The notes: generated from the letters alone by a model not told the origin. Shown: positions 3,102 to 51,211, numbered from the stretch's first letter. The stretch is DNA of 64,000 nt from an uncultured Fibrobacterota bacterium (GCA_964455935.1 CAYVZU010000004.1:3695-67694); one strand, 5' to 3'. Translations and numbers: made by a program.

Positions 3102-3127
3102 AGCTCCATCCTTTCCAGTTTGGATGA

Positions 3128-6268: not shown

Positions 6269-6792
6269 ACCATCTCTTTCTTTTCCACCTCGCGGTATTG
6301 CTGCAAGATCTGGCGGACTTTTGCGGGCTTAACGCGTTGATGGACCGTATCGTTGACCATAATAACCGGCGCCAAACCGCACGCGCCGAAGCAGCGCCCG
6401 ATTTCTAGGGTAAAAAGGCGGTCCGCCGAGGTTTCTCCGACGTCAATGCCCAGGTCTTTTTTTATGGCTTCCAGCACATCATTACCGCCGCGAACATAGC
6501 ATGCCGTTCCCAGGCAGACGCGGACCGTATATTTCCCGCGCGGAACAAGGGAAAAAAAAGAGTAAAAGGTAATTACGCCCTGAATCTTTGAAAGGGGAAC
6601 ATTCAACTTGCTCCCAATCCGCCGGACCGCTTCGTTCGGGACGTATCCGAACATTTTTTGCGTCTCCTGAAGCGCCGGGATCAGGGGGCTTTGTACGGAT
6701 TTGTATTCCTCCAGTTTGGCGTCCAGGTCGTCCAGAAGGATTTTCTCCTTTTCCGTAAGCGCAAATGCGCTTCGGTTTGCTTTCTTTTCCAT
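6259..6792 (-). CDS. NuoE-like thioredoxin-like [2Fe-2S] ferredoxin subunit (FdsG/HoxE-like)
   Basis: A 177-aa protein with CLGTACYV...CFGACGLAP, the NuoE 24-kDa signature. Its stop overlaps the start of the NuoF-fusion gene, suggesting translational coupling. Confidence 0.8.
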   Translation of the reverse strand: MEKKANRSAFALTEKEKILLDDLDAKLEEYKSVQSPLIPALQETQKMFGYVPNEAVRRIGSKLNVPLSKIQGVITFYSFFSLVPRGKYTVRVCLGTACYVRGGNDVLEAIKKDLGIDVGETSADRLFTLEIGRCFGACGLAPVIMVNDTVHQRVKPAKVRQILQQYREVEKKEMVCA

Positions 6793-6822
6793 TATTCCAG
6801 CTCCCCAAAAATGATTAATTCG

Positions 6823-8121
6823 TTACGCATTGGACTTCGCCGCGTAAGGTTTGTTGCCGGCAATGAAAGAAAGCAGCAATCCGATTGCAAGCACAATCGC
6901 CCCAAACGCAAAGGAGTAGTAGGCGGCATTTGCGGGGCGCAAATCCGAAATGACCGCAACAACCTGGGGGCCCACAATTCCCGCCACCGACCAAGCCGTA
7001 AGAATCGATCCGTATACGATCGGCATCATTTTGGCGCCGAATACCGTGGTAACAAAAGAGGGCATCGTGCCGAATCCGCCGCCATAGCAAAGCAGGATAT
7101 AGCAAATCAGAATTGCAAATACCCAAGGATTCGAAACGAACATGAGTGATATGAAGGCCAGCACCTGGGTTGTAAGCATGATCCGAAAAACCTGTATTCT
7201 TCCGAGTTTATCCGAGGTTCCTCCCCAGAAAAAGCGACCTATGCCATTGAAAAGTGAACTGACGGCGATCAGTGTCGCGCCAATCGCGGCCAACGCTGCT
7301 GCATCGAGGTTGGGATTTGCGGCTTTTGCGAAACCCTGCATAAGAGGGGATTGAAAACCGATGATGGCGATCCCAGCACAGATATTGCAGAAGAAAATTA
7401 GCCACATAATGAAAAAACGACCGCTAAACACATATTCCAAAAGGGTTCCTGAACGTTCATCCACCTGTGCGGATGCGGCCGTTGGCTTGGAAGCGGCGTT
7501 TTGGGCCGCTGGAACGGTATAGCCGGCCGGGGGATTTTGTAGAAAAAATCCGGCAAACATGGTCAGGGCCATGAAAACCAGGCCCAGGTAAGCGAAAACC
7601 TGGACCAGATTGCCGTGAGTGGCCGAAAGCAGCATCGGCGCGAATACTTTGCTCATCAGCAAGGCGCCCAACCCAAAGCCCATGACGACCATTCCCGTAA
7701 TAAAGCCCCGCTTGTCGGGAAACCATTTTGCCGCGGTCGCCACAGGCGTAACATAACCCAGTCCCAGTCCGCATCCGCCAATGACTCCGTATCCAATGTA
7801 CAGCAAAACAAGCGATTGATTTCGCAGCGCAAGAGCGCCCAAAAGGTATCCCAATCCAAAGAGAAATCCGCCGGTCATCGCCAATTTTCGAGGACCATAT
7901 TTGGCCAGATTAACTCCGCCCCAGGCGGCCGAAAGGCCAAGGAAACAGATCGCAAGGCTAAAAGCCCAAGCCGCTTGCGAGTTGCTCCATTGGTAAGTGG
8001 CGGTCAGGGGCTTCTGGAAATAGCTCCAGGCATAAACCGTTCCGAGCATAAGTTGAAGCGCCACGCCGGCGAAGGCTACTCCCCATCGATTCTGCACGGC
8101 CGTCTTTGAACCTCGTTCCAT
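6823..8121 (-). CDS. MFS transporter, oxalate/formate antiporter (OFA) family
   Basis: A 432-aa, 12-TM protein. Its N-terminus (RWGVAFAGVALQLMLGTVYAWSYF) is characteristic of the OFA family. It lies 30 nt upstream of the NuoE-like gene and is first in the fdh operon. Confidence 0.8.
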   Translation of the reverse strand: MERGSKTAVQNRWGVAFAGVALQLMLGTVYAWSYFQKPLTATYQWSNSQAAWAFSLAICFLGLSAAWGGVNLAKYGPRKLAMTGGFLFGLGYLLGALALRNQSLVLLYIGYGVIGGCGLGLGYVTPVATAAKWFPDKRGFITGMVVMGFGLGALLMSKVFAPMLLSATHGNLVQVFAYLGLVFMALTMFAGFFLQNPPAGYTVPAAQNAASKPTAASAQVDERSGTLLEYVFSGRFFIMWLIFFCNICAGIAIIGFQSPLMQGFAKAANPNLDAAALAAIGATLIAVSSLFNGIGRFFWGGTSDKLGRIQVFRIMLTTQVLAFISLMFVSNPWVFAILICYILLCYGGGFGTMPSFVTTVFGAKMMPIVYGSILTAWSVAGIVGPQVVAVISDLRPANAAYYSFAFGAIVLAIGLLLSFIAGNKPYAAKSNA

Positions 8122-8696: not shown

Positions 8697-9497
8697 TCAG
8701 TTATACCCGTGCAGCCCGCCCAGAACCAGCGTGGCAAAAATGGTTGCCAGCACGCAAATGAACCCCAAGAGACTTAAAAGAACCGTCGGCATGCCGCGCC
8801 AACCTCGAATCCAACGGGCATGCAGGTATATAGTATAGACCAGCCAGATGATCAGCGCGCCGACTTCCTTGGGGTCCCAACTCCAGAAGCTGCCCCAGGC
8901 CTGATGCGCCCAAATAGCCCCGGCAAAGAGCGCACCAACGGTGAAAAGCGGGTATCCCGCGGAAATCGCTTTGTATTCAAACTGGTCGATGAGAACCCAA
9001 TCCGGAAGCCTCCGGCCCAAGCGGCTGTGCATCGGGACAGCCCGCTTTAGGAGGAACAGAAGACTCGCGCCAAAGGCCACGGCAAAGGCCGCTTCACCTG
9101 CGGCCGCCAGGGTCACGTGAATCGGCAGCCAGATGCTTCTCAAGGCCGGCACAAGCTGGGCCGAAGGCTCCTTGGGGAGAAGCGAGGCCGCGGCCACAAG
9201 CATGAACACGATCCAGGCAATGGCCGTCTCGAATTCGGGCCTGCGGAATTTCACCATCGCGACGAAGTAAAAGATGGCAGTGGCCCAGGAAAGGAGACCA
9301 AGATATTCGAAAAGGTTCGTGATGGGTAGATGGCCCAAGGCGAATCCGCGGCGGCCCAAGGCCAGGCTCTCCACAATCAATCCGGCAGCCATCGACAGCT
9401 CGGCCGTAAGGCCGATTTTTCTATGCCTCACCACAATGTGAGCCGTGTGCAGGAGACAGGCAGTGCCATAAAGCAGAAAGCAGGTCCGGAAGAGCAC
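8697..9497 (-). CDS. ccsA: Cytochrome c biogenesis protein CcsA (ResC), System II heme-handling WWD protein
   Basis: A 266-aa polytopic protein with WAHQAWGSFWSWDPKE (tryptophan-rich WWD motif) and conserved His residues. Confidence 0.8.
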   Translation of the reverse strand: MLFRTCFLLYGTACLLHTAHIVVRHRKIGLTAELSMAAGLIVESLALGRRGFALGHLPITNLFEYLGLLSWATAIFYFVAMVKFRRPEFETAIAWIVFMLVAAASLLPKEPSAQLVPALRSIWLPIHVTLAAAGEAAFAVAFGASLLFLLKRAVPMHSRLGRRLPDWVLIDQFEYKAISAGYPLFTVGALFAGAIWAHQAWGSFWSWDPKEVGALIIWLVYTIYLHARWIRGWRGMPTVLLSLLGFICVLATIFATLVLGGLHGYN

Positions 9498-9501
9498 GAC
9501 A

Positions 9502-10650
9502 TCAAGGCCGTTCGTAAGAACCTCCCAACTCCGGCACGGAGCGTTTCACAAAGGAGACAAGAATAAGGCCGGCACAGCTTAGGGTGATCGCGATCCAGAC
9601 CAGAAGTTCGGCCGGATTTCGCTTGATCTGAATTCCCGAGGAATAGGCCGGCCGATAATCAACAAGAGCAACATCGAAACTCGTTCGGCTTCCATGAAAT
9701 GTCGGGTGCCGGGCAAAAACCCAACCATTGAAAACCGTATCCGCTTCTCGCACAACAACCGTTCGAAGCGCTGGGTTGCGCGACTGCTTCGATCGCGAAT
9801 AGGCCTGGCGTGTGCGGAGGTCAAAGGCAAAATCTGCGAGGAAGCGATCCAAATGAATCGAAAGGGATTCGGCTATTTGAACTGTCCGGCCATAGGGTAT
9901 GGTGCCTGTGTAGTTCAACCGGGGTCCCGTTATGTTTAGGGAGGCGCTGTCAATGCATTCCGGATCTTCCACATAGGTCATTTGGTAGAAACGGAACCCG
10001 TTAAATTTTGCCGGACGATTCACCTCGGTCGTCAGACGGGCCAGGACCTGCCCTTGGCCGGACAAAAAAGTTAGGTCCGTCTGATAATTGCGGATTGCGC
10101 CTTTCTCATCTTGATCAATACGAAAGCGGTCGGCGCGGACTTGGAAAGACAGGCCCGGGATGGGAATGGCTTCACCGGGCCGCATCTGCACCAGACGGTC
10201 GAATCCAAATCGGCTCAGATATCCGGCAATCAGAAAGAGAACCAATGAAGAATGGAATACCGCCGAACCGATTGTGCGCCAGAACACCCCGGCCTTGGGG
10301 CCGCGATCCGGTTTTGAATGACTCACCGAACCGACGGCTTGAATCGCACGGCGAATACCGCATACCGCCAGTTGAACTCCCAGGAGACCCAGGAGAAACA
10401 AAAAGAGGGGCGAGTCGAACATGCGGTCGAAGCCCGCAAATCGAACCAGCGCAGACCCCGCCCTTCCAAGAAGACGCCGGTGCTGTTCCGGCGAAAGATT
10501 CTGGGGAACAAGGATTCCAACAACCGAGAGCAGGGCGATGCCGGCCGCGACAGCCATGCCCCCCCGCATGGAAAGAAACCGGTTCACGGTCAGAACATTC
10601 CCTTGCCCATTTGCACCAGGAAATATTCCCCCGCGGCAATCATCAGCCAA
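9502..10650 (-). CDS. ccsB: Cytochrome c biogenesis protein CcsB/ResB
   Basis: A 382-aa protein with ResB-family architecture: an N-terminal TM helix ending in VPQ, a large periplasmic domain and C-terminal TMs. The start is uncertain (10650, 10569 or 10557). The longest form overlaps the ccdA 3' end. Confidence 0.7.
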   Translation of the reverse strand: MADDCRGGIFPGANGQGNVLTVNRFLSMRGGMAVAAGIALLSVVGILVPQNLSPEQHRRLLGRAGSALVRFAGFDRMFDSPLFLFLLGLLGVQLAVCGIRRAIQAVGSVSHSKPDRGPKAGVFWRTIGSAVFHSSLVLFLIAGYLSRFGFDRLVQMRPGEAIPIPGLSFQVRADRFRIDQDEKGAIRNYQTDLTFLSGQGQVLARLTTEVNRPAKFNGFRFYQMTYVEDPECIDSASLNITGPRLNYTGTIPYGRTVQIAESLSIHLDRFLADFAFDLRTRQAYSRSKQSRNPALRTVVVREADTVFNGWVFARHPTFHGSRTSFDVALVDYRPAYSSGIQIKRNPAELLVWIAITLSCAGLILVSFVKRSVPELGGSYERP

Positions 10651-11300
10651 CCCAGGGCCTTTTTAATCCGGACCATCCAGGCGCCCGAACGCGGCATATG
10701 CGCGAGCAGCCCCGCAAACGTCCCCACCAGGATCAGCAAAGCCCCGAGCCCAATCGCGTATACAAACAGAAGACTGGAACCATACACAAAGCTCCGGGTT
10801 GTGCCGGCATAGGCCAGGACCACGCCCAGCACCGGCGCGGTGCAAGGAGAGGCGACCAGTCCAAAGACAATTCCCATCAGGAGCACATTGGCGTACTTGC
10901 CGCCCTGCCGGTCGGCTTCCTGCAATTTCGAAAGAAATCCGGGCAAACGGATTTCGTACACACCCAGCATGCTGAGGCCCAGCAGGATGCAGATATTCGC
11001 AACAAGAAACGACACCCAGGGACTACTGCTGATCTGGCCAAACAGCGTACCCGTTCCAACGGCAATCAGGCCAAGAGCCGAATAGGTCAGCGCAATTCCA
11101 ACAACAAAAACCAGGGACAAAAGAAACGATTGCAGCCTTGAGGATTGTTTCTGGCCCGCAATGATGCCAACCGTGATGGGAATCATGGGATAGATACACG
11201 GTGTGAGGCTGGACAATACGCCTCCAAGCAGTACCATCAGGTAGGCCGTCATCTTGCCTTGTGCCAAATACATCTGCAGAGATTGAATGATTGCGTCCAT
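10590..11300 (-). CDS. ccdA: Cytochrome c-type biogenesis thiol-disulfide transporter CcdA (DsbD core)
   Basis: A 236-aa protein with six TMs and two conserved Cys (SLTPCIYPMIP and VASPCTAPVL). Confidence 0.8.
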   Translation of the reverse strand: MDAIIQSLQMYLAQGKMTAYLMVLLGGVLSSLTPCIYPMIPITVGIIAGQKQSSRLQSFLLSLVFVVGIALTYSALGLIAVGTGTLFGQISSSPWVSFLVANICILLGLSMLGVYEIRLPGFLSKLQEADRQGGKYANVLLMGIVFGLVASPCTAPVLGVVLAYAGTTRSFVYGSSLLFVYAIGLGALLILVGTFAGLLAHMPRSGAWMVRIKKALGWLMIAAGEYFLVQMGKGMF

Positions 11301-11309
11301 GGGAAACTC

Positions 11310-11789
11310 CTATTTGAGAAGCGCTTCAATCGCCGCCTCGATCTTCTTGCCTTCGTCGGGTGAATAGCCGCGGAATCGCTTGGCGATATTTCTATTCTCG
11401 TCAAGAATGATCAGCGAGGGGACGCCCTTTATGTCGTAAGGTTTTGTGGTTTCGCCCTTGGGATCCAGCAAAATCATATAACTGATCTGGGCCTTTTTCG
11501 CGAAGCCGGAAATCTTTGGGGACGGCTGCCGGTCCAGGTTGACGCCAACCACCTGAAGCCCTTGCGGTCCATATTTCTTCTGAAGGTCATTCAACGCCGG
11601 AAAGGCCTCTTTGCAGGTCTTGCACCACACAGCCCAAAAATCGAGAACAATGACTTTCGCTTTCAGGTCCTCCAAACGAACCTGATTTCCCTGCAGGTCG
11701 AATAGGCTGAATACAGGGGCCGGCGACGATGCGGTTGCATCGGCAAGAAGACCGGCGACGAACACCAATGTGGCCACGATCCGTTTCAT
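11310..11789 (-). CDS. resA: TlpA/ResA-like periplasmic thiol:disulfide oxidoreductase
   Basis: A 159-aa protein with a signal peptide and a thioredoxin fold carrying WCKTC (CxxC). Confidence 0.8.
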   Translation of the reverse strand: MKRIVATLVFVAGLLADATASSPAPVFSLFDLQGNQVRLEDLKAKVIVLDFWAVWCKTCKEAFPALNDLQKKYGPQGLQVVGVNLDRQPSPKISGFAKKAQISYMILLDPKGETTKPYDIKGVPSLIILDENRNIAKRFRGYSPDEGKKIEAAIEALLK

Positions 11790-11804
11790 GATTCCTCCTT
11801 ACTT

Positions 11805-13076
11805 CTAGAATGAGAACGCGACTCCGGCTTCGATCCAATAGGCTCGGAAGCCTTCGGAAATATCCCAGTAATTGTAATGCAAATCGCGTTCGACAATATC
11901 CGCCGTGCTCGAACGCAGGTAACGATCAAAACCGATATCAACGGTTGTCGGATACAGCGCCCAATAGGAGGACGCAGGCGGTTTGACGAAATCGCGCAGC
12001 TCAAAACTGACCTTGCCTCCGATGGTGTGAGCTGAAAATTCGCTGTGTTTGAAATCGGCGGTCATATAGGCCTGCGGGATCTCATAATAGGGCGCATAGA
12101 AAAACGCCTGGGTTTGCGCATAATACCGATAGTCCGGGCGAACGATGATGTTATCGAGAAATCGAAAATAGACCGCGATTCCCGCCGTGTGGCTTTTGAT
12201 ACCCCAACCATCTTCGTAGTAGCGGTAATCGGCCTGGATCGAAGAGCCATCCAGCAGAGGAACATACTGGTTCAGTTTCGCGACGACGGTCCCGCTTTTC
12301 TTGCTTTCGGGATAGTGCTCCTGATAAAATTGCATGACCCCGGCCCGTGGCCCGACCGACACAACGTAATACGGCCGGTCCAGATATCCGCTCTCGAATC
12401 CGTAGCCCAGAACGACGGATGCCACGGTGGTCAGCGTCAGCCCCTGTGTGAGACTGGCGGTGTAGGCAATGTTCTTGCGCCGGCCTTCTCCCAGGTAGTT
12501 CCAACTTGGATTCAGCGAGTCTGGCAAAAAGCGCTCGGGGGGATTGTATTGATCAAAATTCCGGTTATAGCGGAACCCAAGGGTTGTATTGCGTTCAAAA
12601 AGGTCCTGCGAGATCCCGGCCGAGATGGTGTAAGAACGATAGTCGCTTTCGCGGCTGTCCATGGCGGTTACGGAAATCACCGTGGGATTGTCGGAGTTGC
12701 CCCCGGATTTGAAAGCCTTCCAGAAATCGCGGGTATAGGAGAGAGTCGCGCTGTACTCCTTGCGCTGTTCACTTATGGGAGAGGCGGCCGTAATGGCATC
12801 CACGGGCAAAAGGGTTCCGCGATCTTCGCGCCGTGAAGCCGCGGTGATCGCATCCACCAGAAAACCCACGTTCAGGTTTGTGGATTCCGAGAGCTTTTTC
12901 GAAACATGGGCTGTGTTTGAGCGCACAATGCAGTTGTTGTTATCCTCATAGTACTGGAATTTGTAGGCCAGGCTATTTTCGGCTTCGATGATGCCGGCAA
13001 CCCCGAACAGAAGCGCAGCGGCGCAGCCAACCGTAACGAAGCTTCCGGCTCCCGCCCGCATTGTCAGCATCCGCAA
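11805..13076 (-). CDS. Putative outer-membrane beta-barrel protein, DUF3570-like
   Basis: A 423-aa protein with a signal peptide, an alternating amphipathic beta-strand pattern rich in Y/G/N/D, and a C-terminal ...AGVAFSF with terminal Phe (OMP signature). It lies immediately downstream of a DUF4266-like lipoprotein gene, the pairing reported for DUF3570. Confidence 0.5.
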   Translation of the reverse strand: MRMLTMRAGAGSFVTVGCAAALLFGVAGIIEAENSLAYKFQYYEDNNNCIVRSNTAHVSKKLSESTNLNVGFLVDAITAASRREDRGTLLPVDAITAASPISEQRKEYSATLSYTRDFWKAFKSGGNSDNPTVISVTAMDSRESDYRSYTISAGISQDLFERNTTLGFRYNRNFDQYNPPERFLPDSLNPSWNYLGEGRRKNIAYTASLTQGLTLTTVASVVLGYGFESGYLDRPYYVVSVGPRAGVMQFYQEHYPESKKSGTVVAKLNQYVPLLDGSSIQADYRYYEDGWGIKSHTAGIAVYFRFLDNIIVRPDYRYYAQTQAFFYAPYYEIPQAYMTADFKHSEFSAHTIGGKVSFELRDFVKPPASSYWALYPTTVDIGFDRYLRSSTADIVERDLHYNYWDISEGFRAYWIEAGVAFSF

Positions 13077-13291
13077 CCCCCGCCTGCGCCGCCGTAGCCG
13101 CCTGCGCTGCCTTCCCGTCGCGGGTAGATGTGATTCTTTAGCGCGGACTCCTGTTCGTCCTTATCGAAGTACATGATTGGGTCGCCCAGATACTGGCGTT
13201 GCCATTGCATGATCGTGAAACAACCGCTCAGCCCCAAAGCCAAGATGGTCAGGAAGAGAAAAAGGAGAGCGCGCAGGAATCTATTCTTCAT
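13064..13291 (-). CDS. Small lipoprotein, DUF4266-like
   Basis: A 75-aa protein with a lipobox (LGLSGC) and a Gly/Cys-rich C-terminus (GGAGGGCGC). It is the usual partner of DUF3570 genes. It overlaps the barrel gene start. Confidence 0.5.
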   Translation of the reverse strand: MKNRFLRALLFLFLTILALGLSGCFTIMQWQRQYLGDPIMYFDKDEQESALKNHIYPRREGSAGGYGGAGGGCGC

Positions 13292-14340
13292 TTCCAGTAC
13301 GTCTTTTTGTAAAGGGATGACGACGGGTCACCTCCACCGTGGCAGTCCACATTCGAGCAACTCTTTTCAGCCGCGTTCCAGGCAAACATCGTATCATGCC
13401 CGGGGGTTGCCGCGTTTATGAAACGATTATAGAAGGAAACGTCCTTGGCGCCATTCATATGATGGGCCGTGTTGACCAGCGGAAGAGTATCTCCGTCAGG
13501 TGTTAAAAACACGGTCTGGCCATACCGCACGCGCGGTCCGAACTGCGTGGAGTCAATTGCACTGTCGTAGGCTACGGTTTGGAAGTGGCACTCGATGCAC
13601 TGCCGAATATCGCCGGAGGAATTGCGGGAGACATGAAGGGAATGCAGCCCGGCCATGGGCTTGTAGTCATGGCACGAATTGCATCGACCCAACTGGACCG
13701 ACTCCATCCGGAAGTCCGCTTGGCCGTTGCGGTGCAATGAGTCGATCAGCGAAAATGTATCCGCGCCGTTGAAACTGAATTCATCATGAACGAGCCAGGC
13801 AGCCCGGCGGGTTGTCACAAGGGTGTTGCTGGGTCTCTGAATGTAGGTGGCAACCAACGCGGAGTCTTTTTGAACTGCCCCGGCATGACAAGCAAAGCAG
13901 TTGCCCGCGAAGGATTTGGACATGGGCAGCAGAGAATCCCATTGGCACTTTGGCGAGGGAACCGTATGGCACATAGCGCAGTGCATGGGGCTTGCGGCGG
14001 TATCAAGCCGATCATTCGCATGGAGCCTTCCTGTCCGGGGTTTTTCTTCGCCGTCGATTACATCCGAAGCATCGAAATAGACGAAGTGGTTCGAGGCCGG
14101 ATCCAATGCACTGTCAAGCTGGATTGCATCCCAATGGCAGGCCACGCATTGCGAGTGAGTCGCTCCTTGAACCAGGACGGCCGTGTCTTTGCATGACACG
14201 CCGGGATAATGATGGCACTGATCACAGGAAACCTGTTTTGGCAGAGAACCCGAAACAGGTTCGAACCGCTCAATACAGCCCGCGGCCAAGGCAACGGCCA
14301 CTATGGGAAGCAAAGCGGGTCTGGCGCATCGCCTTTTCAT
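13288..14340 (-). CDS. Multiheme cytochrome c lipoprotein (6 CxxCH plus one CX4CH motif)
   Basis: A 350-aa protein with a lipoprotein signal (LAAGC). Heme-binding motifs are CDQCH, CVACH, CAMCH, CFACH, CNSCH, CIECH and CSNVDCH. Its start overlaps the upstream gene's stop (ATGA). Confidence 0.8.
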   Translation of the reverse strand: MKRRCARPALLPIVAVALAAGCIERFEPVSGSLPKQVSCDQCHHYPGVSCKDTAVLVQGATHSQCVACHWDAIQLDSALDPASNHFVYFDASDVIDGEEKPRTGRLHANDRLDTAASPMHCAMCHTVPSPKCQWDSLLPMSKSFAGNCFACHAGAVQKDSALVATYIQRPSNTLVTTRRAAWLVHDEFSFNGADTFSLIDSLHRNGQADFRMESVQLGRCNSCHDYKPMAGLHSLHVSRNSSGDIRQCIECHFQTVAYDSAIDSTQFGPRVRYGQTVFLTPDGDTLPLVNTAHHMNGAKDVSFYNRFINAATPGHDTMFAWNAAEKSCSNVDCHGGGDPSSSLYKKTYWK

Positions 14341-15134
14341 CTCTTCATCACAAGAACGGGTTGGCGGACAAGCTGACCTTGGAATTCCGCTATGGCCACG
14401 TAGACGCCGTCCTTCAGGCCTTGGACGGGAACACTCTTTTCCGCGGAGGAGACTGATCTTTCCAGATATCGCCGAGCGATTTTCCCCTGAAGATCACAGA
14501 TTGTCAGAGCCAATGGCGCCCCAATTGCGCCGGCGGGAAGCGAGAGCGTTAATACGCCGGATTTTGCCGCAATGCGAGCCTTAAGGCTGGGTTTCCCGGG
14601 GATGGTGTTTATTACGGACGAAGTCGTATCTGTGACTGTTACCGAAATATTGGTAAGAAATGTGGACCCGCTGTTGGCCGAGGAGTCGTATCCGGTGCGG
14701 GAATGGGAATGGCCGTCGATCACGATATTGCCGCGAACCAAGGGGCCCGGCGGGTCGATTGAATTGGAGTGGTCCTCGGTCATTTCGATACAGTACCGGT
14801 AGGTCCCGTTTGCGACGCGCTGTCCGTTCTGGTTAGTCAAGTTCCAGGTTGCTGAGATAGTCCCATGAACATTACGGGTGGCACCTGTCAGGCCGTCTAC
14901 ATCCATGCTGCTTGCGGCTTTCCAGGAGACCAAGTCGTTCTTGCGTTCGGCTGCCCATATCCCGATCGTTTTCACAAACTGGCCAGACGCGTTCTGCATC
15001 CAGACCGCAACCAGGTTCTTTGGGGCCTCGCGGCCGTCGTAGGTTCTTGTTGTCGCGGTGACCCGCAGGCTCCCCGCCAAAGCGGTTGAACTCAACATGC
15101 AGAGCCCCACCCCAATCAGGCAAAAGACTTTCAT
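14337..15134 (-). CDS. Secreted DUF2271-domain protein with T9SS-type C-terminal sorting domain
   Basis: The start is trimmed to MKVFCLIG, which has a signal peptide and RBS GGGGAGGG. The DUF2271 region reads VAVWMQNASGQFVKTIGIW...VDGLTGATR. The C-terminal approximately 70 aa (ICDLQGKIARRY...GLKDGVYVAIAEF) resemble Por/T9SS sorting domains. Confidence 0.55.
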   Translation of the reverse strand: MKVFCLIGVGLCMLSSTALAGSLRVTATTRTYDGREAPKNLVAVWMQNASGQFVKTIGIWAAERKNDLVSWKAASSMDVDGLTGATRNVHGTISATWNLTNQNGQRVANGTYRYCIEMTEDHSNSIDPPGPLVRGNIVIDGHSHSRTGYDSSANSGSTFLTNISVTVTDTTSSVINTIPGKPSLKARIAAKSGVLTLSLPAGAIGAPLALTICDLQGKIARRYLERSVSSAEKSVPVQGLKDGVYVAIAEFQGQLVRQPVLVMKR

Positions 15135-15156
15135 TTTCCCTCCCCGAAATTCCGGG

Positions 15157-15546
15157 TTATACAGAGACCCGTGATAGCCGGTATTGACAATCGCCGCAAT
15201 TTTTTGAACAAAAAGGGCAGCTAATGCCGGCATCGCGCAGGAAGGCCGCCAGTTCATGGCATTTGTCGGCGCGCGCTTTGCGGACAATGCACTTGGTGCA
15301 CCCTCGGCCTTTGCCCTTCATGGCTGCAAATTCCCAGCAGGACATCTGCTGGGGCTTTTTGGAAAAGAACGGTTCGAGACTGGCCCATAGTATTCGAAAG
15401 TGCCCGCCCGCGGTTCTTTTTGCCCTTACTTTTCCGCTTCGGATCCATTTCAAAACCGTATCCGGAGTCACCGAACAACAACGGGCTGCTTGACCTGTAG
15501 TAAGCGTCCCTTTGGCCATAATGGGTTTTATGGGTTTTCCTTCCAT
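15157..15546 (-). CDS. Small excisionase/MerR-type HTH DNA-binding protein with Cys-rich C-terminal domain (putative metal/redox-sensing regulator)
   Basis: This gene is hidden in the C-terminal third of a 320-aa track ORF. The HTH_17-like segment is LTTGQAARCCSVTPDTVLKWIRSGKVRAKRTAGGHFRI. Nine or more Cys follow, including CxxC and CPFCSKNCGDC. The start is ATG 15546 (possibly leaderless, with TATAAT 8 nt upstream) or ATG 15519. It is the first gene of the cytochrome/ccs operon. Confidence 0.5.
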   Translation of the reverse strand: MEGKPIKPIMAKGTLTTGQAARCCSVTPDTVLKWIRSGKVRAKRTAGGHFRILWASLEPFFSKKPQQMSCWEFAAMKGKGRGCTKCIVRKARADKCHELAAFLRDAGISCPFCSKNCGDCQYRLSRVSV

Positions 15547-15757
15547 TTTTAAATTATATGAAAAAGATTCGCTCGCGCAATACTCAGGCACAAGATCTTG
15601 CGCCGGCAAAACCCTTCGTTGTGTTTTCTCCCGTTTTCCCTCTGCGAGCTCGGTGGTTTCAAAGTCCTTCCGACAGATGCGGGCAGGCACAAGCCCGAAA
15701 TATATTTTCCTGTTGGCCGGGATCGGGATTTCACCGTGTCCATCAAAGGAGCGGACT

Positions 15758-16771
15758 GTGCACATGTCCGATGCACTTATTTCGCCGCAGGTCGGCGGCG
15801 CCCTGTGGGCGATTTCGGCCGGACTGCTTGCGGTCTCCGCCCGCAAATTGCGCAAAGAAGCCGACGACAGCAAGACGCCCCTGATGGCCGTGGCCGGGGC
15901 ATTCGTCTTTGCCGCGCAGATGATCAACTTCGCCATTCCCGGGACCGGATCAAGCGGCCACTTGGGAGGGGGCCTGCTTCTGGCAGTCCTGCTGGGTCCC
16001 TCCGCCGCGTTTTTGACCATCGCCTGTGTGCTCATGATCCAGGCGCTGCTCTTTGCCGACGGCGGCCTGCTTGCCCTTGGCTGCAATATCTTTAACATGG
16101 GATTTTTTCCGGCCTTCATCGCTTACCCGTTTATCTATCGCGGCCTCACCGCATCCAGCCTGTCGCAACAGCGAATTTTCTGGGGCTCGCTGGCCGCGGC
16201 CGTGACCGGCCTTCAATTGGGTGCTGTCGGTGTCGTTCTGCAAACCGTGGCTTCCGGAATTTCCGCGATTGACACGGGCCGGTTTCTTCTCTTTATGCAG
16301 CCTATTCATCTGGCCATTGGAATCGTTGAGGGTCTGGCAACGGCCGGCCTGCTGGTTATGCTGCAGAGAAACAGGCCGGGGCTTCTTGCGGCCAATGCCC
16401 GACCAGCCCGGAGCCGAAAAGCGGTGTTGACTCTTGCCGCGCTCACGCTGGCCGTTGCCGGGGTGGTGAGCTGGTTTGCCTCGGAAAACCCGGACGGCCT
16501 GGAATGGGCGCTGGAGAAAACAGAAACTGCGGGAACGATGACCGCATCCGGAATCCACGGCCTTCTGGGCCGTGTCCGGACCGGCACGGCTCGCCTGCCG
16601 GACTATTCGTTCAAGTCCGACAATCATGGAAATGGCGATGCCGTTTCCTCCGCATCCACCTCCACCGCTGGTCTCATAGGCAGTGCCGTGACACTGCTTG
16701 CGGCAGGCCTTATCGGGTACGGCCTGCGCCGGTTCGGCAGAAATTCGCGAACGCCGGGGCCAGGTCAATGA
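15758..16771 (+). CDS. cbiM: ECF transporter substrate-capture component CbiM/NikM fused to a C-terminal PDGLE domain
   Basis: The region MHMSDALISPQVGG...GSSGHLGGG is a CbiM/NikM core. PDGLEWALEKT and a final TM helix at the C-terminus form the PDGLE domain. The start is called at GTG 15758, with AGGAG 7 nt upstream, which yields the Met-His N-terminus that CbiM/NikM need for metal binding. The ATG at 15764 would lack His2. Confidence 0.7.
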   Translation: MHMSDALISPQVGGALWAISAGLLAVSARKLRKEADDSKTPLMAVAGAFVFAAQMINFAIPGTGSSGHLGGGLLLAVLLGPSAAFLTIACVLMIQALLFADGGLLALGCNIFNMGFFPAFIAYPFIYRGLTASSLSQQRIFWGSLAAAVTGLQLGAVGVVLQTVASGISAIDTGRFLLFMQPIHLAIGIVEGLATAGLLVMLQRNRPGLLAANARPARSRKAVLTLAALTLAVAGVVSWFASENPDGLEWALEKTETAGTMTASGIHGLLGRVRTGTARLPDYSFKSDNHGNGDAVSSASTSTAGLIGSAVTLLAAGLIGYGLRRFGRNSRTPGPGQ

Positions 16772-17577
16772 GCGCCATTGCAGCGGGAATTCTCGATGTG
16801 CGAAGGCTGGACGAACTCGCGCGCGCATCAAGCTTCGCGCACGATCTCGATTCGCGCGTGAAGCTGATTGTGACACTCCTATTCCTGGCAGCGATTGCAT
16901 CCTTTCGCGCGTACGAAACTTCGGCTTTGATCCCGTTCTTCCTTTTTCCTTTTGTCATGCTCTCCTTAGGAAACGTGCCGGCCCGACCCATTCTAAAGCG
17001 GCTTGCTTTTGCCGCGCCATTTGCGGTCTGTATGGGCGCCTTCAACCCTTTGTTGGACCGCGCGCCGTTGCTTTCGATTGGCGGCTTTTCCGTAAGCGCC
17101 GGCTGGGTTTCCTACCTTTCCATTCTCTTACGTTTCATACTGGCCGTCAGCTCCGTGCTGCTGCTGATTGCCGTTACCGGAATGGACCATGTCGCGGCGG
17201 CCCTGCGCAAACTTGGATTTCCAAGGCCCCTTGTCAACCAACTGTTGTTGATGTATCGGTATCTATTCCTTCTTTCCGACGAGGCGGAACGGATGATTCG
17301 CTCCCGAGCGCTCCGCGCTTTTGGCCGGCCGCTTGGGCTTGGGCAGTTCGGCTATCTGACCGGTACGTTGCTTTTGCGCACGCTCGACCGCGGCCGGCGA
17401 ATTCATGCCGCCATGGCGTCGCGCGGGTTCCACGGTGAGATCAGGATGTTTTCCGGATCGCGGCTGCGCGCCGCCGATTTTGTTTTCGCGGGCGGCTGGA
17501 TCGGTTACTTCGCCCTCTGTCGGGCCACGAATGTTGCGCACTGGATCGGCGCTCTGGCCTTTGGAGCGATGCAATGA
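16768..17577 (+). CDS. cbiQ: ECF transporter transmembrane (T) component CbiQ
   Basis: A 269-aa polytopic protein of the CbiQ family. It has ATGA overlap with cbiM upstream and with cbiO downstream. Confidence 0.75.
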   Translation: MSAIAAGILDVRRLDELARASSFAHDLDSRVKLIVTLLFLAAIASFRAYETSALIPFFLFPFVMLSLGNVPARPILKRLAFAAPFAVCMGAFNPLLDRAPLLSIGGFSVSAGWVSYLSILLRFILAVSSVLLLIAVTGMDHVAAALRKLGFPRPLVNQLLLMYRYLFLLSDEAERMIRSRALRAFGRPLGLGQFGYLTGTLLLRTLDRGRRIHAAMASRGFHGEIRMFSGSRLRAADFVFAGGWIGYFALCRATNVAHWIGALAFGAMQ

Positions 17578-18332
17578 GCCATCATCTGGTCGAGGCCGTC
17601 AATCTCGGCTATTTATACCCGGACGGAACCGAAGCCCTGAAACGTGTTTCATTTCGCATTGTCCACGGCGAGTCCGTTGCCATTGTCGGCCCCAACGGCG
17701 CGGGAAAATCGACCCTGCTCAATCATCTCAACGGAAGCCTGCTGGCGAGCTCCGGCGAAGCCCGCGTGGGCGGCATTCCCGTGCGCAAAGAAACGCTCTC
17801 TTCGGTTCGCAAAGCCGTTGGAATGGTTTTCCAAGACCCCGACGACCAACTCTTCATGCCTACGGTTATTGAAGACGTAACGTTTGGCCCGCTCAACCTT
17901 GGCCTGTCGCCCGAAGAAGCCCGGCTGCGCGCCCTGGAGGCCCTGCGCCAGGTCGGATGCGAGCACCTGAAAGACCGGCCGCCCTATCATCTTTCGAGTG
18001 GAGAGAAGAAAGCCGTCGCCATTGCCACGGTGCTTTCGACGCTGCCCGATGTTCTGGTGCTCGACGAACCCACAGCAAACCTCGACGCACGCCATCGGCG
18101 GCGCATCATCGATCTGATCCGCGGATTCCATCACACCCGCATCATTGCGACGCACGATCTCGATCTCGTGCTCGATGTCTGCGACCGCGCCATTCTTCTG
18201 AACAACGGCATCCTGGTGGCCGACGCCGCCACAGCCGAACTCATGCGCGACAAAATCCTGCTGGAGCAGCACGGGCTCGAACAACCGCTCCGGATGCAGG
18301 AATGTCCGCTGTGTGGAAAGCATTTGACGTGA
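17574..18332 (+). CDS. cbiO: ECF transporter ATP-binding protein CbiO
   Basis: The protein has Walker A (GPNGAGKST), an ABC signature ([12 protein letters not shown]), Walker B (VLVLDEP) and an H-loop. Confidence 0.85.
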
Positions 18333-18598: not shown

Positions 18599-20530
18599 AT
18601 GCGGCTGCTGCATTCTTGTACGCTGTTGATTGGATTGACAACAATGGTCTTTGCCGCGCCGCCGGCCGGCACGCCCGCTCCTTCCGCAAAACCTCCCAAG
18701 CCAACTCCCGTCAGCAGCAAACCCGCGACCGCTCCGGAGCCGCCTGCAAGCGTCAGCGCGGCCGTTCCGCGCATGACCTTTGATTTCAAAGACACGGACA
18801 TCCGCGATATCGCCCGTTCCATTTCCATTGCCTATGGTCTTAACATCCTGATCGACAAGGATATCACGGTCAAGGTGACCGTGCATTTGACCGACGTTCC
18901 GGTCATGGAAGGCCTGCGCACGATTCTTGAATCCAACGGCCTGGCCCTAGTTCGCGAAGGCGATCTCTATCGCATCACCAAGCCGGTGGACCGAGGCAGC
19001 GCGGCGATCGATGCCAAGCGCGACACCATCAGTTTCAATATCAGCAACGTGGAAGTCAACGACTTCATCCGCGACATTTCAAGCAAAACGGGGATCAACA
19101 TCATCGCGGAAAAGAATGTCACCGGCCGGGTTTCCGGGTCGCTGCGCAATGTGGATGTGGAAGACGGGATCCGGGCTTTGCTGGAAGCCAACGGGTTTAC
19201 GATGCAGTACCGGGGCGAAATCCTGGTGGTGGGCATGCCATCCGAGGATGCCAAACGAAGGCCCGACCGGGAGGCCCGGCGGCTCGACGTGAGAGTAAAA
19301 GACAAGAAGGTGACCCTCGATCTCAAGGGCGCGGACCTGGGCGATGTATTAAAAGAGATCGCCGACCAGGGCAAGCTCGACATGATCACCTACGGAGCGG
19401 TCCGGGGCGAGGTCAACGCCAAATTGAAGGAGATGCCCATCGAGCATGCGGTCGCTCTCCTGGTTTCGGGGACGCAATACACCTTTGCCATTCGCGAAGA
19501 CATCTTGCTCATCGGCGACCGCAATGTCACCACCCCCTCCGGCCAGGCCTTGAGCATTGCCGAACTGGTTCACGTGAAACACATCAAAGCCGAGGGCCTC
19601 CCCAACCTTCTGCCCAAGACCATTCCAACGGGAAACGTTCAAGTCATTAAGGAGCAGAATGCAGTTTTAGTGACCGGTACCACGGACATCATTGCCCAAG
19701 TCAATGAATTCATTCGGCAAATCGACATTCCAACGCCGCAGATCATGATTGAAGCGGTCATTGTCGAATATGGGCGAGACCAGGGTCGCGAAGTGGGCGT
19801 ATCGGCCAGGTCGGGCCGCGGAGCCGACAGCCTGGAAATGCTCCTTCCCAGCATTGCTTACGGGGTCGGCGCCAGAACCCTCAATCCACGGCTGCCATCG
19901 GATATTGCGGGATTTAAATTCGGGACCGTAGGATTTCTGCCGGACGATTTTGTGATTCGGCTTCACGCATTGGAGCGCGACAAGCGCGCCAAAATTTTGG
20001 CGCAACCGCGCATTGCCACTCTTAACGGCAACAAGGCCTCCATCCATGTCGGCACAACGAGCTATTTCCGCCTGGCCGGCGGCACAACGACCGACCCCAT
20101 CACTCGTTTCCAAACCATCCAGTCCGGGATTACGCTCAACATTACGCCCTGGATTTCCAAAAGCGGGCAGGTCACGGCCGAAATCAGCCCCGAGGTCTCC
20201 AATACCACCGGCATCAACGAGGAAGGATTCCCCGATATTTCCGTGCGCAATGTCTCCACCACGGTGCGGCTCAACGACGGCGAGACGATTATCCTGGGAG
20301 GACTGATTCGCTCCGAGGACAAGAGCACGATCGAGAAAGTCCCCATCCTGGGAGACATTCCTCTGTTGGGATGGCTGTTCCGGTCCAAGATCGCGGCGAA
20401 ATCATCCAGTGAGCTGGCCATTTACATCACCCCTCACATACTGAATAAGGAAGACATTGTGGATATTGATAAAGAGCTGGAACAATTCAAGACACGATCG
20501 AATTCCGGCAAAGTTCCCGAACTCCGCTAG
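18599..20530 (+). CDS. Secretin (GspD/PilQ family) of a type II secretion / type IV pilus-like system
   Basis: A 643-aa protein with a signal peptide and a Pro/Ala-rich linker. It has N0/STN-like domains (FDFKDTDIRDIARSISIAYGLNILID...) and a C-terminal secretin domain (ILGGLIRSEDKSTIEKVPILGDIPLLGWLFRS). Confidence 0.8.
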   Translation: MRLLHSCTLLIGLTTMVFAAPPAGTPAPSAKPPKPTPVSSKPATAPEPPASVSAAVPRMTFDFKDTDIRDIARSISIAYGLNILIDKDITVKVTVHLTDVPVMEGLRTILESNGLALVREGDLYRITKPVDRGSAAIDAKRDTISFNISNVEVNDFIRDISSKTGINIIAEKNVTGRVSGSLRNVDVEDGIRALLEANGFTMQYRGEILVVGMPSEDAKRRPDREARRLDVRVKDKKVTLDLKGADLGDVLKEIADQGKLDMITYGAVRGEVNAKLKEMPIEHAVALLVSGTQYTFAIREDILLIGDRNVTTPSGQALSIAELVHVKHIKAEGLPNLLPKTIPTGNVQVIKEQNAVLVTGTTDIIAQVNEFIRQIDIPTPQIMIEAVIVEYGRDQGREVGVSARSGRGADSLEMLLPSIAYGVGARTLNPRLPSDIAGFKFGTVGFLPDDFVIRLHALERDKRAKILAQPRIATLNGNKASIHVGTTSYFRLAGGTTTDPITRFQTIQSGITLNITPWISKSGQVTAEISPEVSNTTGINEEGFPDISVRNVSTTVRLNDGETIILGGLIRSEDKSTIEKVPILGDIPLLGWLFRSKIAAKSSSELAIYITPHILNKEDIVDIDKELEQFKTRSNSGKVPELR

Positions 20531-20545
20531 CCTCTTTCCGAATCT

Positions 20546-21736
20546 ATGCTCGAAGTCCTTGATCCTGGAAAACGCACGGTCCTCTTTGACGACGTCCTGT
20601 TCTTTCACCGTCCCCGCCAGCCCCAGGACGCAGACCCCATCGCCTACCTGGAGGCGGAGATCGCGGGACTTCTGGGAGCTCAGGAAAGCCTGTCGGATGT
20701 CCTGTACCGATATCGGGAAACCGTCGACGGCTACCTGATCGGCCTGGCCCGGCGCAGCGCGATTCAGGGTCGCAGGCCCGATCCTCTTGTGGTCTGCCGT
20801 ATCCCTCACGCGGTCGCATTATGGCAACGGTTCGAGCAGATCCAGCCGCAGGCCGCTCCCATGGCTTTGCTTTATGTGCGCGATTTCGACCACCACTATA
20901 TTTTGACGGGCGATCGAACCGGGCTGTGCCGCGTGGCCAAGCTCAAGCCCACCCACCGCCTGGGCTATGATGTGTATTCGGCCGTTGAACGGGCTTGCCA
21001 GCTTCGGCCCGACCTGCGCGAAAACAAGCGACTGTATTGCGCGGGCGAAATTCCGGAATTCACCCGCGCGGCCCTGCTCGAACGCCATGTGGAAATCGTT
21101 CAGATCGTTCTTCCCAAGCGCCAGCAACTCGATCCGGCCCTGCTGCAGGAATGGGATTTCCGCCTGCCTCGGGAGGTCGAGGCGCAGATGCGATTTCACG
21201 AGGTGGTCAAAACGATACGGGTCGCCGCCATTTCGGCCGGTGTGATTCTGTCGGTCATCGCGATCCTCTTTGCCATGGAACGCGGCCTGGCCTGGCAGTC
21301 CGGAAAGAGCCGCCTGGTATGGCAAAGTCTCCAGAGCTCCTTGCGTGAGATGAATTTTCTGCGTACGCAGAACATGAACCAGATTTCCGAGCTCGCCATG
21401 GGCGTCCAGCTTTCCGGCATCCGGACAGGTCACGCCGCCGTGCTGCAGGTGCTGGCCGCCACAAGGCCGGCGCCGGTTCGCCTCGAACAGCTCACGCTTG
21501 CTCCATACCGGCAACGCGTTGCAGGCGGCGATTCGACTCCGGTGGTGGTCTACCGTCTTGAACTCAAAGGCCTTTGCGGGGCCGCCGGCCCGATCAGCGC
21601 ATGGATGGCCGCGCTCTCCGCGTCACCGCAGCTCGCGGGCGTCAAACTGATATCGGTGGAGCGCCGCGGAGAGGAACACGCATTCCGCATGGAATGCGAT
21701 GTGGCTGGTTTGGACCCAAAGGCGCGGGGACAATGA
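20546..21736 (+). CDS. GspL-like inner-membrane assembly protein (cytoplasmic domain, single TM, periplasmic domain)
   Basis: A 396-aa protein with one TM (VAAISAGVILSVIAILFAM) near residue 235, then a coiled-coil and a periplasmic domain. Topology, size and its position before a GspM/PilO-like gene match GspL. The call rests on architecture only. Confidence 0.35.
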   Translation: MLEVLDPGKRTVLFDDVLFFHRPRQPQDADPIAYLEAEIAGLLGAQESLSDVLYRYRETVDGYLIGLARRSAIQGRRPDPLVVCRIPHAVALWQRFEQIQPQAAPMALLYVRDFDHHYILTGDRTGLCRVAKLKPTHRLGYDVYSAVERACQLRPDLRENKRLYCAGEIPEFTRAALLERHVEIVQIVLPKRQQLDPALLQEWDFRLPREVEAQMRFHEVVKTIRVAAISAGVILSVIAILFAMERGLAWQSGKSRLVWQSLQSSLREMNFLRTQNMNQISELAMGVQLSGIRTGHAAVLQVLAATRPAPVRLEQLTLAPYRQRVAGGDSTPVVVYRLELKGLCGAAGPISAWMAALSASPQLAGVKLISVERRGEEHAFRMECDVAGLDPKARGQ

Positions 21737-21737
21737 A

Positions 21738-22643
21738 ATGGTGAGTGCGCGCACATACCGCCTGCTCCGGATCCTGATCCCGCTTTTTCTTCTTGTTCTG
21801 GCCCGCGGCTTCATTGGGAAAACCGTGGAGGAGGTTCGAGACGCGTACAGCCTTCTGCAATTCGAGCGCCATCGAATCGAAAACTCGGGTGTGCGCACGC
21901 GCGGACTCCCGGAACTCAAGGCCGACTTTGAAGCCTTGGCCCGCAAGAAGGCCCAGGTTTCCTCGTCGCTATTCGCGGTCAGCAGTGAAGCTTCGCTTTA
22001 CGATCTGCTGTTCCTGAAAGCCGAAGAGGCCGGCGCTATTATCATATCGGTTTCCTCGCGCCCCAAGCGCCGCTGCGCGGGGTACGACGAGCTGCCTCTT
22101 CAGTTGCGCGCCCGGGGCGCCTACCATGATCTGGCCTTGCTGGTAAACAGGATCGAAACATCGAGCCGACTGCTCCACATCGGGGAGTTGCGCATGTCGG
22201 TGGACGGCCGGGGCGAACTGACGGCGGATATGGACGTGACCGCGTACCTGCAATCCGCGGATTCCACGAAGACCGCCGGCCCGCGACGGTCCTCGCCGGC
22301 CCCGGCCTACCTCGCGGCACTCCAGAAAGCGCTGGCCGTGCGCACCATGAAGCCGGCATTCTCCTATGCGGCAACCGGAGGCGATCCGTTCTCGGCCCTG
22401 CCGGTCCGCAGATCCGGCGCAAAAGCAACGGGTATGGCCTCCGAGGCCCCCAATGTCAAGCTCAAGGGAATCCTCTGGAAGCAACCACCGCTTGCGGTTT
22501 TGGAATCCCTCGATGGTCAGACCCTGATCCTCCGTGAAGGCGATGAAATCGGCGGCTACAAGGTGCAATCGATTCTGCGCTCGGCCGTAAATCTGGTGGG
22601 GCCCAAGGGGACCCATGTTCTGGAACAGTATCAGCAGAAATAG
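21738..22643 (+). CDS. GspM/PilO-like protein fused to a PilP/GspC-HR-like C-terminal beta domain
   Basis: The start MVSARTYRLLRILIPLFLLVLA is an N-terminal TM. A PilO/GspM-like periplasmic fold follows. The C-terminus (KLKGILWKQPPLAVLESLDGQTLILREGDEIGGYKVQSI) resembles the PilP / GspC HR domain. It has a 4-nt overlap with the upstream gene. Confidence 0.45.
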   Translation: MVSARTYRLLRILIPLFLLVLARGFIGKTVEEVRDAYSLLQFERHRIENSGVRTRGLPELKADFEALARKKAQVSSSLFAVSSEASLYDLLFLKAEEAGAIIISVSSRPKRRCAGYDELPLQLRARGAYHDLALLVNRIETSSRLLHIGELRMSVDGRGELTADMDVTAYLQSADSTKTAGPRRSSPAPAYLAALQKALAVRTMKPAFSYAATGGDPFSALPVRRSGAKATGMASEAPNVKLKGILWKQPPLAVLESLDGQTLILREGDEIGGYKVQSILRSAVNLVGPKGTHVLEQYQQK

Positions 22644-22733
22644 CATGCCGGTCGGGAACCCACGATATGAAAACTATGCTTTGCTTTCCGACCGCTGAAG
22701 CTCGGCGATTCCTTGGCCGCTAACCCTCTTTTT

Positions 22734-49717: not shown

Positions 49718-49720
49718 GAC

Positions 49721-50920: not shown

Positions 50921-51211
50921 ATTCAGGAGATCCCTTTTGATTGATGAAAAGTAAAGTATTAGATTGGGGCGCGTATTTTCAATCACGCCGGCAGAATGGA
51001 TATTTGATCAACTGGTAAAATTTGTTGCCGCACAAGTTCGGGCTTGCTGTGTAGATTGGAGGAAAATACGCTTTGAAACCCTCACAAGCGATATGGGCAA
51101 ATCGCGGTCCGGCCCTTTGCAGCAAATGGCCTCTTAACCAAATGGGTTCGCGAAGGCGGAATAAAACAGAAGGGAAAAAGCCACTGGGCAATTATTGCCA
51201 ACGATGCATTT

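Follow-up and report, generated by a model that had tools for sequence, protein, structure and literature searches.

A small BldC-like helix-turn-helix protein with a conserved seven-cysteine module at the head of a cytochrome and thiol-redox gene row in an uncultured Fibrobacterota bacterium

A small gene inside a spurious open reading frame

We analysed a window of 64,000 nucleotides from an uncultured Fibrobacterota bacterium (GCA_964455935.1, CAYVZU010000004.1:3695-67694), whose minus strand carries a 320-residue open reading frame (ORF) at 15157..16119. The original prediction held that only the last part of this ORF is a real gene, encoding a small regulator, and that the remainder is spurious and antisense. 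Both statements are borne out: in Pfam and NCBIfam scans, family matches are confined to residues 206–251, in the last third, and the upstream two thirds oppose cbiM and the 215-nt spacer in front of it. The following features were assigned to the small gene and its upstream region.

15157..15546, minus strand: small regulator gene, 129 residues from ATG 15546, TAA stop at 15159–15157
15367..15507, minus strand: winged helix-turn-helix (HTH), BldC/excisionase-like, residues 14–60, above the cut-offs of PF12728 and TIGR01764
15169..15351, minus strand: seven-cysteine module, residues 66–126, with C70-W-E, C83xxC86, C96 and C113xxxC117xxC120-x-Y
15517..15534, minus strand: candidate operator of two 9-nt direct repeats, CCCATAAAA and CCCATTATG, from the tandem repeat and the family matrix
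15553..15580, minus strand: candidate sigma-70-type promoter, TTGCGC at 15580–15575, a 16-nt spacer and TATAAT at 15558–15553
15585..15604: palindrome GGCACAAGATCTTGCGCC, overlapping the first copy of the 10-mer CAGGCACAAG

Translated from ATG 15546, the gene returns the same HTH matches as the long ORF, and its product begins MEGKPIKPIMAKGTLTTGQAARCCSVTPDTVLKWIRSGKVRAKRTAGGHFRI and terminates CPFCSKNCGDCQYRLSRVSV. An in-frame ATG at 15519, a start at least as good, gives a 120-residue version. The protein has 10 cysteines, eight of which lie in the tail (C70, C83, C86, C96, C110, C113, C117 and C120). By identity look-up, the exact 129-residue product is absent from sequence records. Judged by its sequence, the small hidden gene is real and encodes a predicted DNA-binding protein with a conserved seven-cysteine tail; a genuine regulator lying under a spurious 320-residue ORF is an error type typical of automatic annotation pipelines.

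Genomic setting of the regulator gene

Downstream of the regulator on the same strand, and divergently across the spacer, the genes listed below were assigned with Pfam and, for the transporter genes, also NCBIfam.

15134–14337, minus strand: DUF2271 protein
14340–13288, minus strand: multihaem cytochrome
13291–13064, minus strand: DUF4266 protein
13076–11805, minus strand: DUF3570 protein
11789–11310, minus strand: redoxin
11300–10590, minus strand: CcdA/DsbD_TM protein
10650–9502, minus strand: ResB
9497–8697, minus strand: CcsA
15761..18332, plus strand: divergent transporter operon of cbiM(-PDGLE), cbiQ and cbiO

The regulator had been placed at the head of a cytochrome/ccs operon and divergent from cbiMQO, and both placements hold. 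It is the first gene of a packed minus-strand row that ends with ResB and CcsA, and cbiM, cbiQ and cbiO follow one another on the plus strand across the 215-nt spacer. Within the co-directional row (8697..15134), intergenic gaps measure 22 nt at most and some genes overlap slightly; the regulator stop lies 22 nt from the DUF2271 gene, and behind the regulator the minus strand showed no terminator-like site. The row encodes an extracytoplasmic electron-transfer and thiol-redox set together with System II cytochrome c maturation. On the other side, cbiM starts at ATG 15761 and scores 194.9 bits against CbiM and 87.6 bits against PDGLE. Its 336-residue product (15761–16771, plus strand) is a CbiM protein fused to a C-terminal PDGLE domain. 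A CbiO identical to that of the window is encoded on a groundwater metagenome contig.

Part of the row resembles a described gene cluster. DUF2271 and DUF3570 proteins are experimentally shown substrates of ApbE flavinylation (PMC8238504), and a cluster that joins DUF3570 and DUF4266 to a thioredoxin-like protein and DsbD has been described as the ‘DsbD system’ (Meheust et al. 2021, PMC8238504). The window operon likewise has DUF3570, DUF4266, a thioredoxin-like protein and a DsbD/CcdA-type protein, to which it adds DUF2271, the multihaem cytochrome and ResB/CcsA. No ApbE gene was found among the window ORFs scanned, and the available portions of the ‘DsbD system’ description (PMC8238504) mention no regulator of the seven-cysteine HTH kind. 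The DUF2271 protein has a TGAT motif (DGLTGATR) of the [S/T]GA[S/T] type, plus a weak T9SS tail. The window DUF3570 protein has two DAITAAS stretches.

The DNA-binding domain resembles BldC

The regulator passes the cut-offs of HTH_17 (PF12728; 30.4 bits against 27) and of the ‘excise’ model TIGR01764 (34.0 bits against 28.8). Against the MerR models it reaches 27.0 bits for PF00376, just under the cut-off of 28.2, and 15.9 bits for PF13411, where 21.6 is needed. In the AF2 model, the HTH region has a pLDDT of 89–98, and the helices that follow it are all short (residues 54–60, 70–76, 80–85, 87–90, 96–105 and 121–127). The domain had been predicted to be an excisionase/MerR-type HTH: profile searches do find an HTH, and the excisionase part of that description stands on PF12728 and TIGR01764. 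Classical MerR was rejected, both MerR models being below their cut-offs and the AF2 model being without the long coiled-coil dimerisation helix.

The nearest sequence in the PDB is BldC (6ama, E 8e-6), which aligns ungapped over regulator residues 11–69. BldC also comes first among the Foldseek matches of the AF2 model, followed by RacA, phage Pukovnik Xis, the CarH N-terminus and MerR proteins. By sequence (about 35% identity over 46–59 residues) and by fold, BldC of Streptomyces (6ama, 6amk) is thus the nearest solved relative; against the NCBIfam BldC model NF033787, the regulator scores 34.5 bits, the cut-off being 77. On DNA, BldC subunits line up head to tail along direct repeats AATTXXXX(C), each subunit taking up one 9-bp repeat; this binding needs Arg30, which contacts guanine, His46, which enters the minor groove, and Gly44, at the subunit interface (PMC5859096). 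In the alignment to 6ama, these residues correspond to K33 (Arg30), H49 (His46) and G47 (Gly44) of the regulator. K33, G47, G48 and H49 are each kept in 164–168 of 169 relatives (K33 in 164, G47 and H49 in 168), and lysine for arginine is a conservative change. BldC Lys26 is replaced by Asp in the window protein. Whereas BldC is a 68-residue HTH alone, the regulator adds the seven-cysteine module and most relatives also have a receiver-like domain. From these sequence comparisons we propose that the label ‘BldC-like HTH with conserved seven-Cys module’ should replace MerR.

Two better-known groups share parts of this architecture. Like the regulator, the MerR sensors SoxR, CueR and CadR combine an N-terminal winged HTH of the same superfamily with a C-terminal cysteine sensor, and MerR-family metal and redox sensors are weak Foldseek matches of the regulator model. 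SoxR carries an Fe-S cluster, with the motif CX2CXCX5C; this motif is absent from the regulator, where the spacing is C-x12-CxxC-x9-C-x16-CxxxCxxC. The binding sites would differ as well, those of the regulator family being direct repeats past the -10 box and those of MerR proteins a palindrome inside the 19–20 bp promoter spacer. The second group consists of Xis-type HTH_17 proteins (TIGR01764), whose models the DNA-binding domain passes and which oligomerise head to tail along direct repeats. Unlike these, the regulator has no mobile-element context and carries a cysteine module, and its family is tied to respiratory and redox operons.

A conserved seven-cysteine module

The tail of the protein had been described as cysteine-rich, and its pattern proves to be conserved: seven cysteines are kept in 162–169 of 169 relatives (96–100%), whereas the eighth tail cysteine, C110, is not conserved. 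Residue by residue, the counts out of 169 are 169 for C70, 166 for W71, 149 for E72, 168 for C83, 169 for C86, 168 for C96, 162 for C113, 168 for C117, 167 for C120 and 155 for Y122. A module histidine occurs in 101 of 169 relatives and is Ile in the window protein.

No Pfam or NCBIfam model matches the module. A profile of the module only gives 60.1 bits (E 1.5e-16) on the window protein, which is itself among the 56 sequences that built the profile, and it finds nothing meaningful among PDB sequences. The AF2 model of the isolated module has no Foldseek match in the PDB at E <= 10. Model confidence is moderate here, with a pLDDT of 68–81 in the full-length model and 72.7 for the module alone, and all helices are short. 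In two family members, modules stand in tandem behind one HTH, three in P0153 and two in P0164; in P0153, a zf_CopZ/Fer2_BFD protein and a methyltransferase then follow downstream. In six-frame translations of 165 loci, the module never occurs without an HTH. By these comparisons, the tail is a discrete module and acts as a unit of its own.

With seven invariant cysteines, CxxxCxxC among them, the module may hold one or two metal centres. The CxxxCxxC motif and the four further invariant cysteines favour an Fe-S cluster. Metal or redox sensing (Fe-S or Zn) by the tail, as originally envisaged, is plausible.

A multi-phylum family at the head of redox operons

A word-indexed search returned 17 relatives of the regulator, and a profile search over 1.84 billion representatives returned 169 clusters (50% identity) at E <= 1e-30. 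When a single genome of each species was scanned, 130 family matches were confirmed. Members are found in Gemmatimonadota, Zixibacteria, Acidobacteriota (Holophagae and Bryobacterales), Elusimicrobiota, Myxococcota and Planctomycetota, as well as in Latescibacterota, Chitinivibrionia, Ignavibacteria and others, so that the relatives span at least eight phyla. In the sources consulted, they go by no more specific name than ‘excisionase family DNA binding protein’ and ‘helix-turn-helix domain-containing protein’. A literature search for a DsrC-linked HTH/Cys regulator, or for a BldC-like protein with Cys or Fe-S, found nothing relevant.

Most relatives have 250–285 residues. In 149 of the 169, the protein is at least 230 residues long and has a third domain weakly similar to response-regulator receivers, with the phospho-acceptor Asp present in 139 of these long forms. 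The window protein is a short form, which stops 9 residues past the last cysteine and is without the receiver-like domain. Further short forms are P0002, P0123, P0146, P0148, P0151, P0155, P0156, P0158, P0162 and P0163.

Neighbouring genes in the fetched family loci were clustered and the cluster representatives scanned with Pfam. Two operon types recur, each with the regulator first. One continues with DsrC, a NarI-like cytochrome b and an HdrD/DsrK-like Fe-S and CCG protein; the other continues with a Macro domain, a NarI-like protein, an HdrD-like protein and a PAS histidine kinase. Among loci with at least 2.5 kb of downstream sequence, 81 of 94 have DsrC, NarI-like or HdrD-like genes within 4 kb. 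In P0025 and P0026, the entire regulator is fused to a C-terminal DsrC/TusE domain, and these fusions tie the family physically to DsrC. Short forms share the setting: P0155 stands at the head of a canonical DsrC operon, and P0151 lies upstream of a multihaem cytochrome and a CCG protein. Seven Gemmatimonadota loci (L007, L015, L017, L023, L037, L039 and L052) hold two paralogous family genes back to back, one heading a DsrC / NarI-like / HdrD-like operon and the other a DsrC / Macro / NarI-like / HdrD-like / PAS kinase operon. A CbiA/CobB-type amidase resembling DsrN is found near these paralogues.

No DsrC, DsrM-like/NarI-like or DsrK-like/HdrD-like gene was found in the whole 64-kb window, and at 164 loci no other family member has cbiM, cbiQ, DUF2271, DUF4266, DUF3570, ResB or CcsA beside it. 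Scans of genome and metagenome contigs gave no relative above 47% identity. With its neighbours unshared and no closer relative found, the association of the regulator with its operon has a single genome behind it. The theme that the operon would have in common with the DsrC and DsrMK-like partners is thiol-disulfide chemistry and haem-based membrane electron transfer. Taken with its relatives, the window regulator is a short member of a widespread, unnamed, multi-phylum family whose members are probably on/off switches for redox operons.

With 149 of 169 relatives longer than the window protein, one may ask whether the gene is a decayed remnant of a long form. Equally, its best curated models describe an excisionase-family DNA-binding domain and phage Pukovnik Xis is among its fold matches, as would suit an excisionase or recombination directionality factor of a mobile element. 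We consider either origin highly improbable. The gene lies inside a chromosomal respiratory operon, and no integrase was found among the ORFs scanned across the window. As for decay, all seven conserved cysteines are intact and the protein ends exactly at a domain boundary; independent short forms exist, P0155 heading an intact canonical operon; and the next gene, 22 nt past the stop, leaves no room for the remains of a frameshifted receiver.

Direct repeats upstream of family genes

For the family loci, k-mers were counted over 129 non-redundant regions, each being the 300 nt in front of the HTH. The 7-mers CCATAAA and CATAAAA each occur in 52–53 of these regions (about 7 expected), and the -35-like CTTGACA occurs in 38 (4 expected). 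Copies of the pattern C.AT[AT] are 9 nt apart in 91 cases, 18 nt in 46 and 27 nt in 32, where other spacings give about 6. In the resulting arrays, 3–6 units of (t/c)C(g/a/c)ATA(a/g)a(a/t) follow one another exactly every 9 nt. Shifted to another register, the unit becomes NATAAAAYC and, like the BldC site AATTXXXX(C), opens with an AT-rich stretch and closes on a fixed C, here at position 9.

Arrays of at least 10 bits are present in 58 of 174 family upstream regions and in 2 of 174 shuffled ones; strong arrays thus occur in only about one third of the family regions. Arrays that reach 12 bits or more number 88 over 1.42 Mb; 56 of these are found no further than 200 nt upstream of a family gene and share its strand, and many of the others inspected sit close in front of a family gene on the opposite strand. 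The arrays begin about 30–32 nt past the TTGAC of the -35 box, right after the -10 box, and therefore cover the transcription start, a position typical of a repressor site. In 27 of 55 family loci with strong arrays, the array is non-coding, since an in-frame stop falls within or after it. By analogy with BldC, these arrays are candidate operators that would be bound in BldC fashion, and the 9-bp direct-repeat element offers a concrete candidate binding site. Such binding would carry the unusual BldC mode, described so far for an effector-less protein, over to regulators with sensor domains.

The candidate operator and start codon in the window

A repeat matrix was derived from the other family loci only, with the window left out. 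Its top match in the 64 kb, on both strands, is at 15534–15517 (minus strand), where CCCATAAAA scores 11.6 bits and CCCATTATG 4.1 bits. The array is short, with two good units and flanking units that score below zero. Because a score as high arises somewhere in 14–18% of random 64-kb sequences, the weight of the match rests on its position: the repeats lie on the gene's own strand, 18 nt past a perfect TATAAT and directly at the coding start, the second unit including ATG 15519. TTGACA-type boxes occupy the same place relative to the repeats in family loci as the candidate -35 box does here. A sigma-70 consensus scan of the window does not list this promoter, because its -35 hexamer matches at only 3 of 6 positions.

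The original prediction described a TATAAT 8 nt upstream of ATG 15546 and a leaderless transcript. The TATAAT is present, and its distance to the A of the ATG is 6 nt rather than 8. This spacing is correct for a leaderless mRNA and makes one from ATG 15546 possible. The case is weakened by the coding sequence itself. Between ATG 15546 and ATG 15519, the two repeat units encode a KPIKPI(M) stretch; as these codons are the 9-nt repeat, which in other members belongs to non-coding upstream DNA, ATG 15519 is a serious alternative. A 27-nt operator leader followed by a start at ATG 15519 (MAKGTLTTGQ...) would fit the family layout at least as well, and the N-termini of family members vary too much to choose between the two starts.

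The spacer and the divergent cbiMQO operon

As the regulator and cbiM diverge from a shared 215-nt spacer, the protein might instead be a Co or Ni sensor that controls the cbiMQO transporter. A cysteine-rich tail could bind Co or Ni. A search of the window found no known RNA or cobalamin riboswitch before cbiM at Rfam gathering scores, and none at E <= 1 over 15100–15900; as the spacer yielded no such riboswitch, cbiM is likely to be controlled by some protein. There are also sequence features peculiar to the spacer. The palindrome GGCACAAGATCTTGCGCC lies just upstream of the candidate -35 box, and the 10-mer CAGGCACAAG has two exact copies in the 64 kb, both in the spacer and 99 nt apart, the second at 15684–15693.

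We nevertheless judge a Co or Ni sensor unlikely. Neither cbiM nor cbiQ adjoins any of 164 family members, and the conserved repeats are placed at the regulator's own start, in its own orientation and about 230 nt from cbiM. The palindrome does not resemble the family's 9-nt repeats and has no convincing second site in the window; together with the 10-mer it may mark the site of a different regulator. In the cbiM leader, at 15680–15707 (plus strand), a GC-rich hairpin CGGGCAGGCACAAGCCCG is followed by AAATATATTT and holds the second copy of the 10-mer. The hairpin is terminator-like, and shuffled sequence yields at least as many sites of this kind as the region itself.

Sensor or structural domain

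The main rival to a sensing role, one that we hold to be doubtful, has the cysteine module as a purely structural zinc or oligomerisation domain that senses nothing. The long forms would then take their signal through the receiver-like domain, and the window protein would be constitutive or architectural. Two zinc sites, Cys4 and Cys3His, could be built from the seven cysteines plus the histidine that 101 of 169 members possess; this histidine is, however, exchanged for Phe, Tyr, Pro or Ile in 40% of members. A signal entering by the receiver would agree with the phospho-acceptor Asp of 139 of 149 long forms and with the PAS histidine kinase of one operon type, and BldC is itself without a sensor domain (PMC5859096). 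A structural role accounts less readily for proteins in which the module is multiplied two or three times, and the link to DsrC and HdrD-like thiol and Fe-S partners, with DsrC fusions in some cases, suits a sensor better. The redox or thiol sensor is the better fit because of this multiplication, the DsrC fusion and the constant link to Fe-S, haem and thiol operons.

Proposed mechanism

Of the readings set out here, we regard as reasonably likely that the protein binds direct repeats to regulate its own gene and operon, and that it carries a metal or thiol sensor. It would be a small cytoplasmic transcription regulator that combines a BldC-like winged HTH with the seven-cysteine module. Several HTH copies would bind head to tail on the 9-bp direct repeats (in the window, CCCATAAAA and CCCATTATG) just past the -10 box of the gene's own promoter and over the transcription start. 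Binding at 15534–15517 would place the regulator and the genes that follow it under common control; the operon so controlled comprises DUF2271, the multihaem cytochrome, DUF4266, DUF3570, redoxin, CcdA, ResB and CcsA. The cysteine module would hold a metal centre, with an Fe-S cluster favoured, or reactive thiols, and its redox or occupancy state would alter DNA binding or oligomerisation. The analysis establishes the gene, its two domains, its place in the family, the conserved cysteines, the repeat element of the family and the order of the genes. What we infer is that the protein binds the repeats and a metal and that the genes behind it are co-transcribed, along with the nature of the signal and whether regulation is positive or negative.

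A bolder proposal goes beyond this, and we offer it tentatively, as a possibility that is well short of likely. The seven-cysteine module may be a new Fe-S or thiol sensor for electron-transfer systems of the DsrC and thiol-disulfide types, registering their redox or sulfuration state and thereby steering the polymerisation of a BldC-like HTH on 9-bp repeats. The family would then be a widespread and unrecognised switch, and the window short form one that has been re-used for a flavin and haem operon of extracytoplasmic electron transfer. If this is true, the switch would serve membrane redox modules in Gemmatimonadota, Zixibacteria, Acidobacteriota, Elusimicrobiota, Myxococcota, Planctomycetota and others.

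The most interesting result lies at the level of the family, which unites a new cysteine module with conserved direct repeats as its candidate operator and is strongly linked to DsrC and DsrMK-like genes. The gene opens the way into a tractable family of at least 169 clusters (50% identity), whose central cysteine module has no model or solved structure. As the family precedes DsrC and DsrMK-like modules in many uncultured and poorly understood phyla, it could help to explain the signals to which such modules respond.

Other genes in the window

At 402–8121 (minus strand) lie genes for an MFS transporter, a NuoE-like 2Fe-2S protein, a 1046-residue NuoF-like/GltD-like fusion and a molybdopterin formate-dehydrogenase-like subunit, a combination that resembles a soluble NAD-linked formate dehydrogenase. 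Components of type IV pilus or type II secretion systems are found at 18599–24077 (plus strand) and 48029–50986 (minus strand), with secretin and PilO-like genes in one place and T2SS E and F ATPase and platform genes in another.
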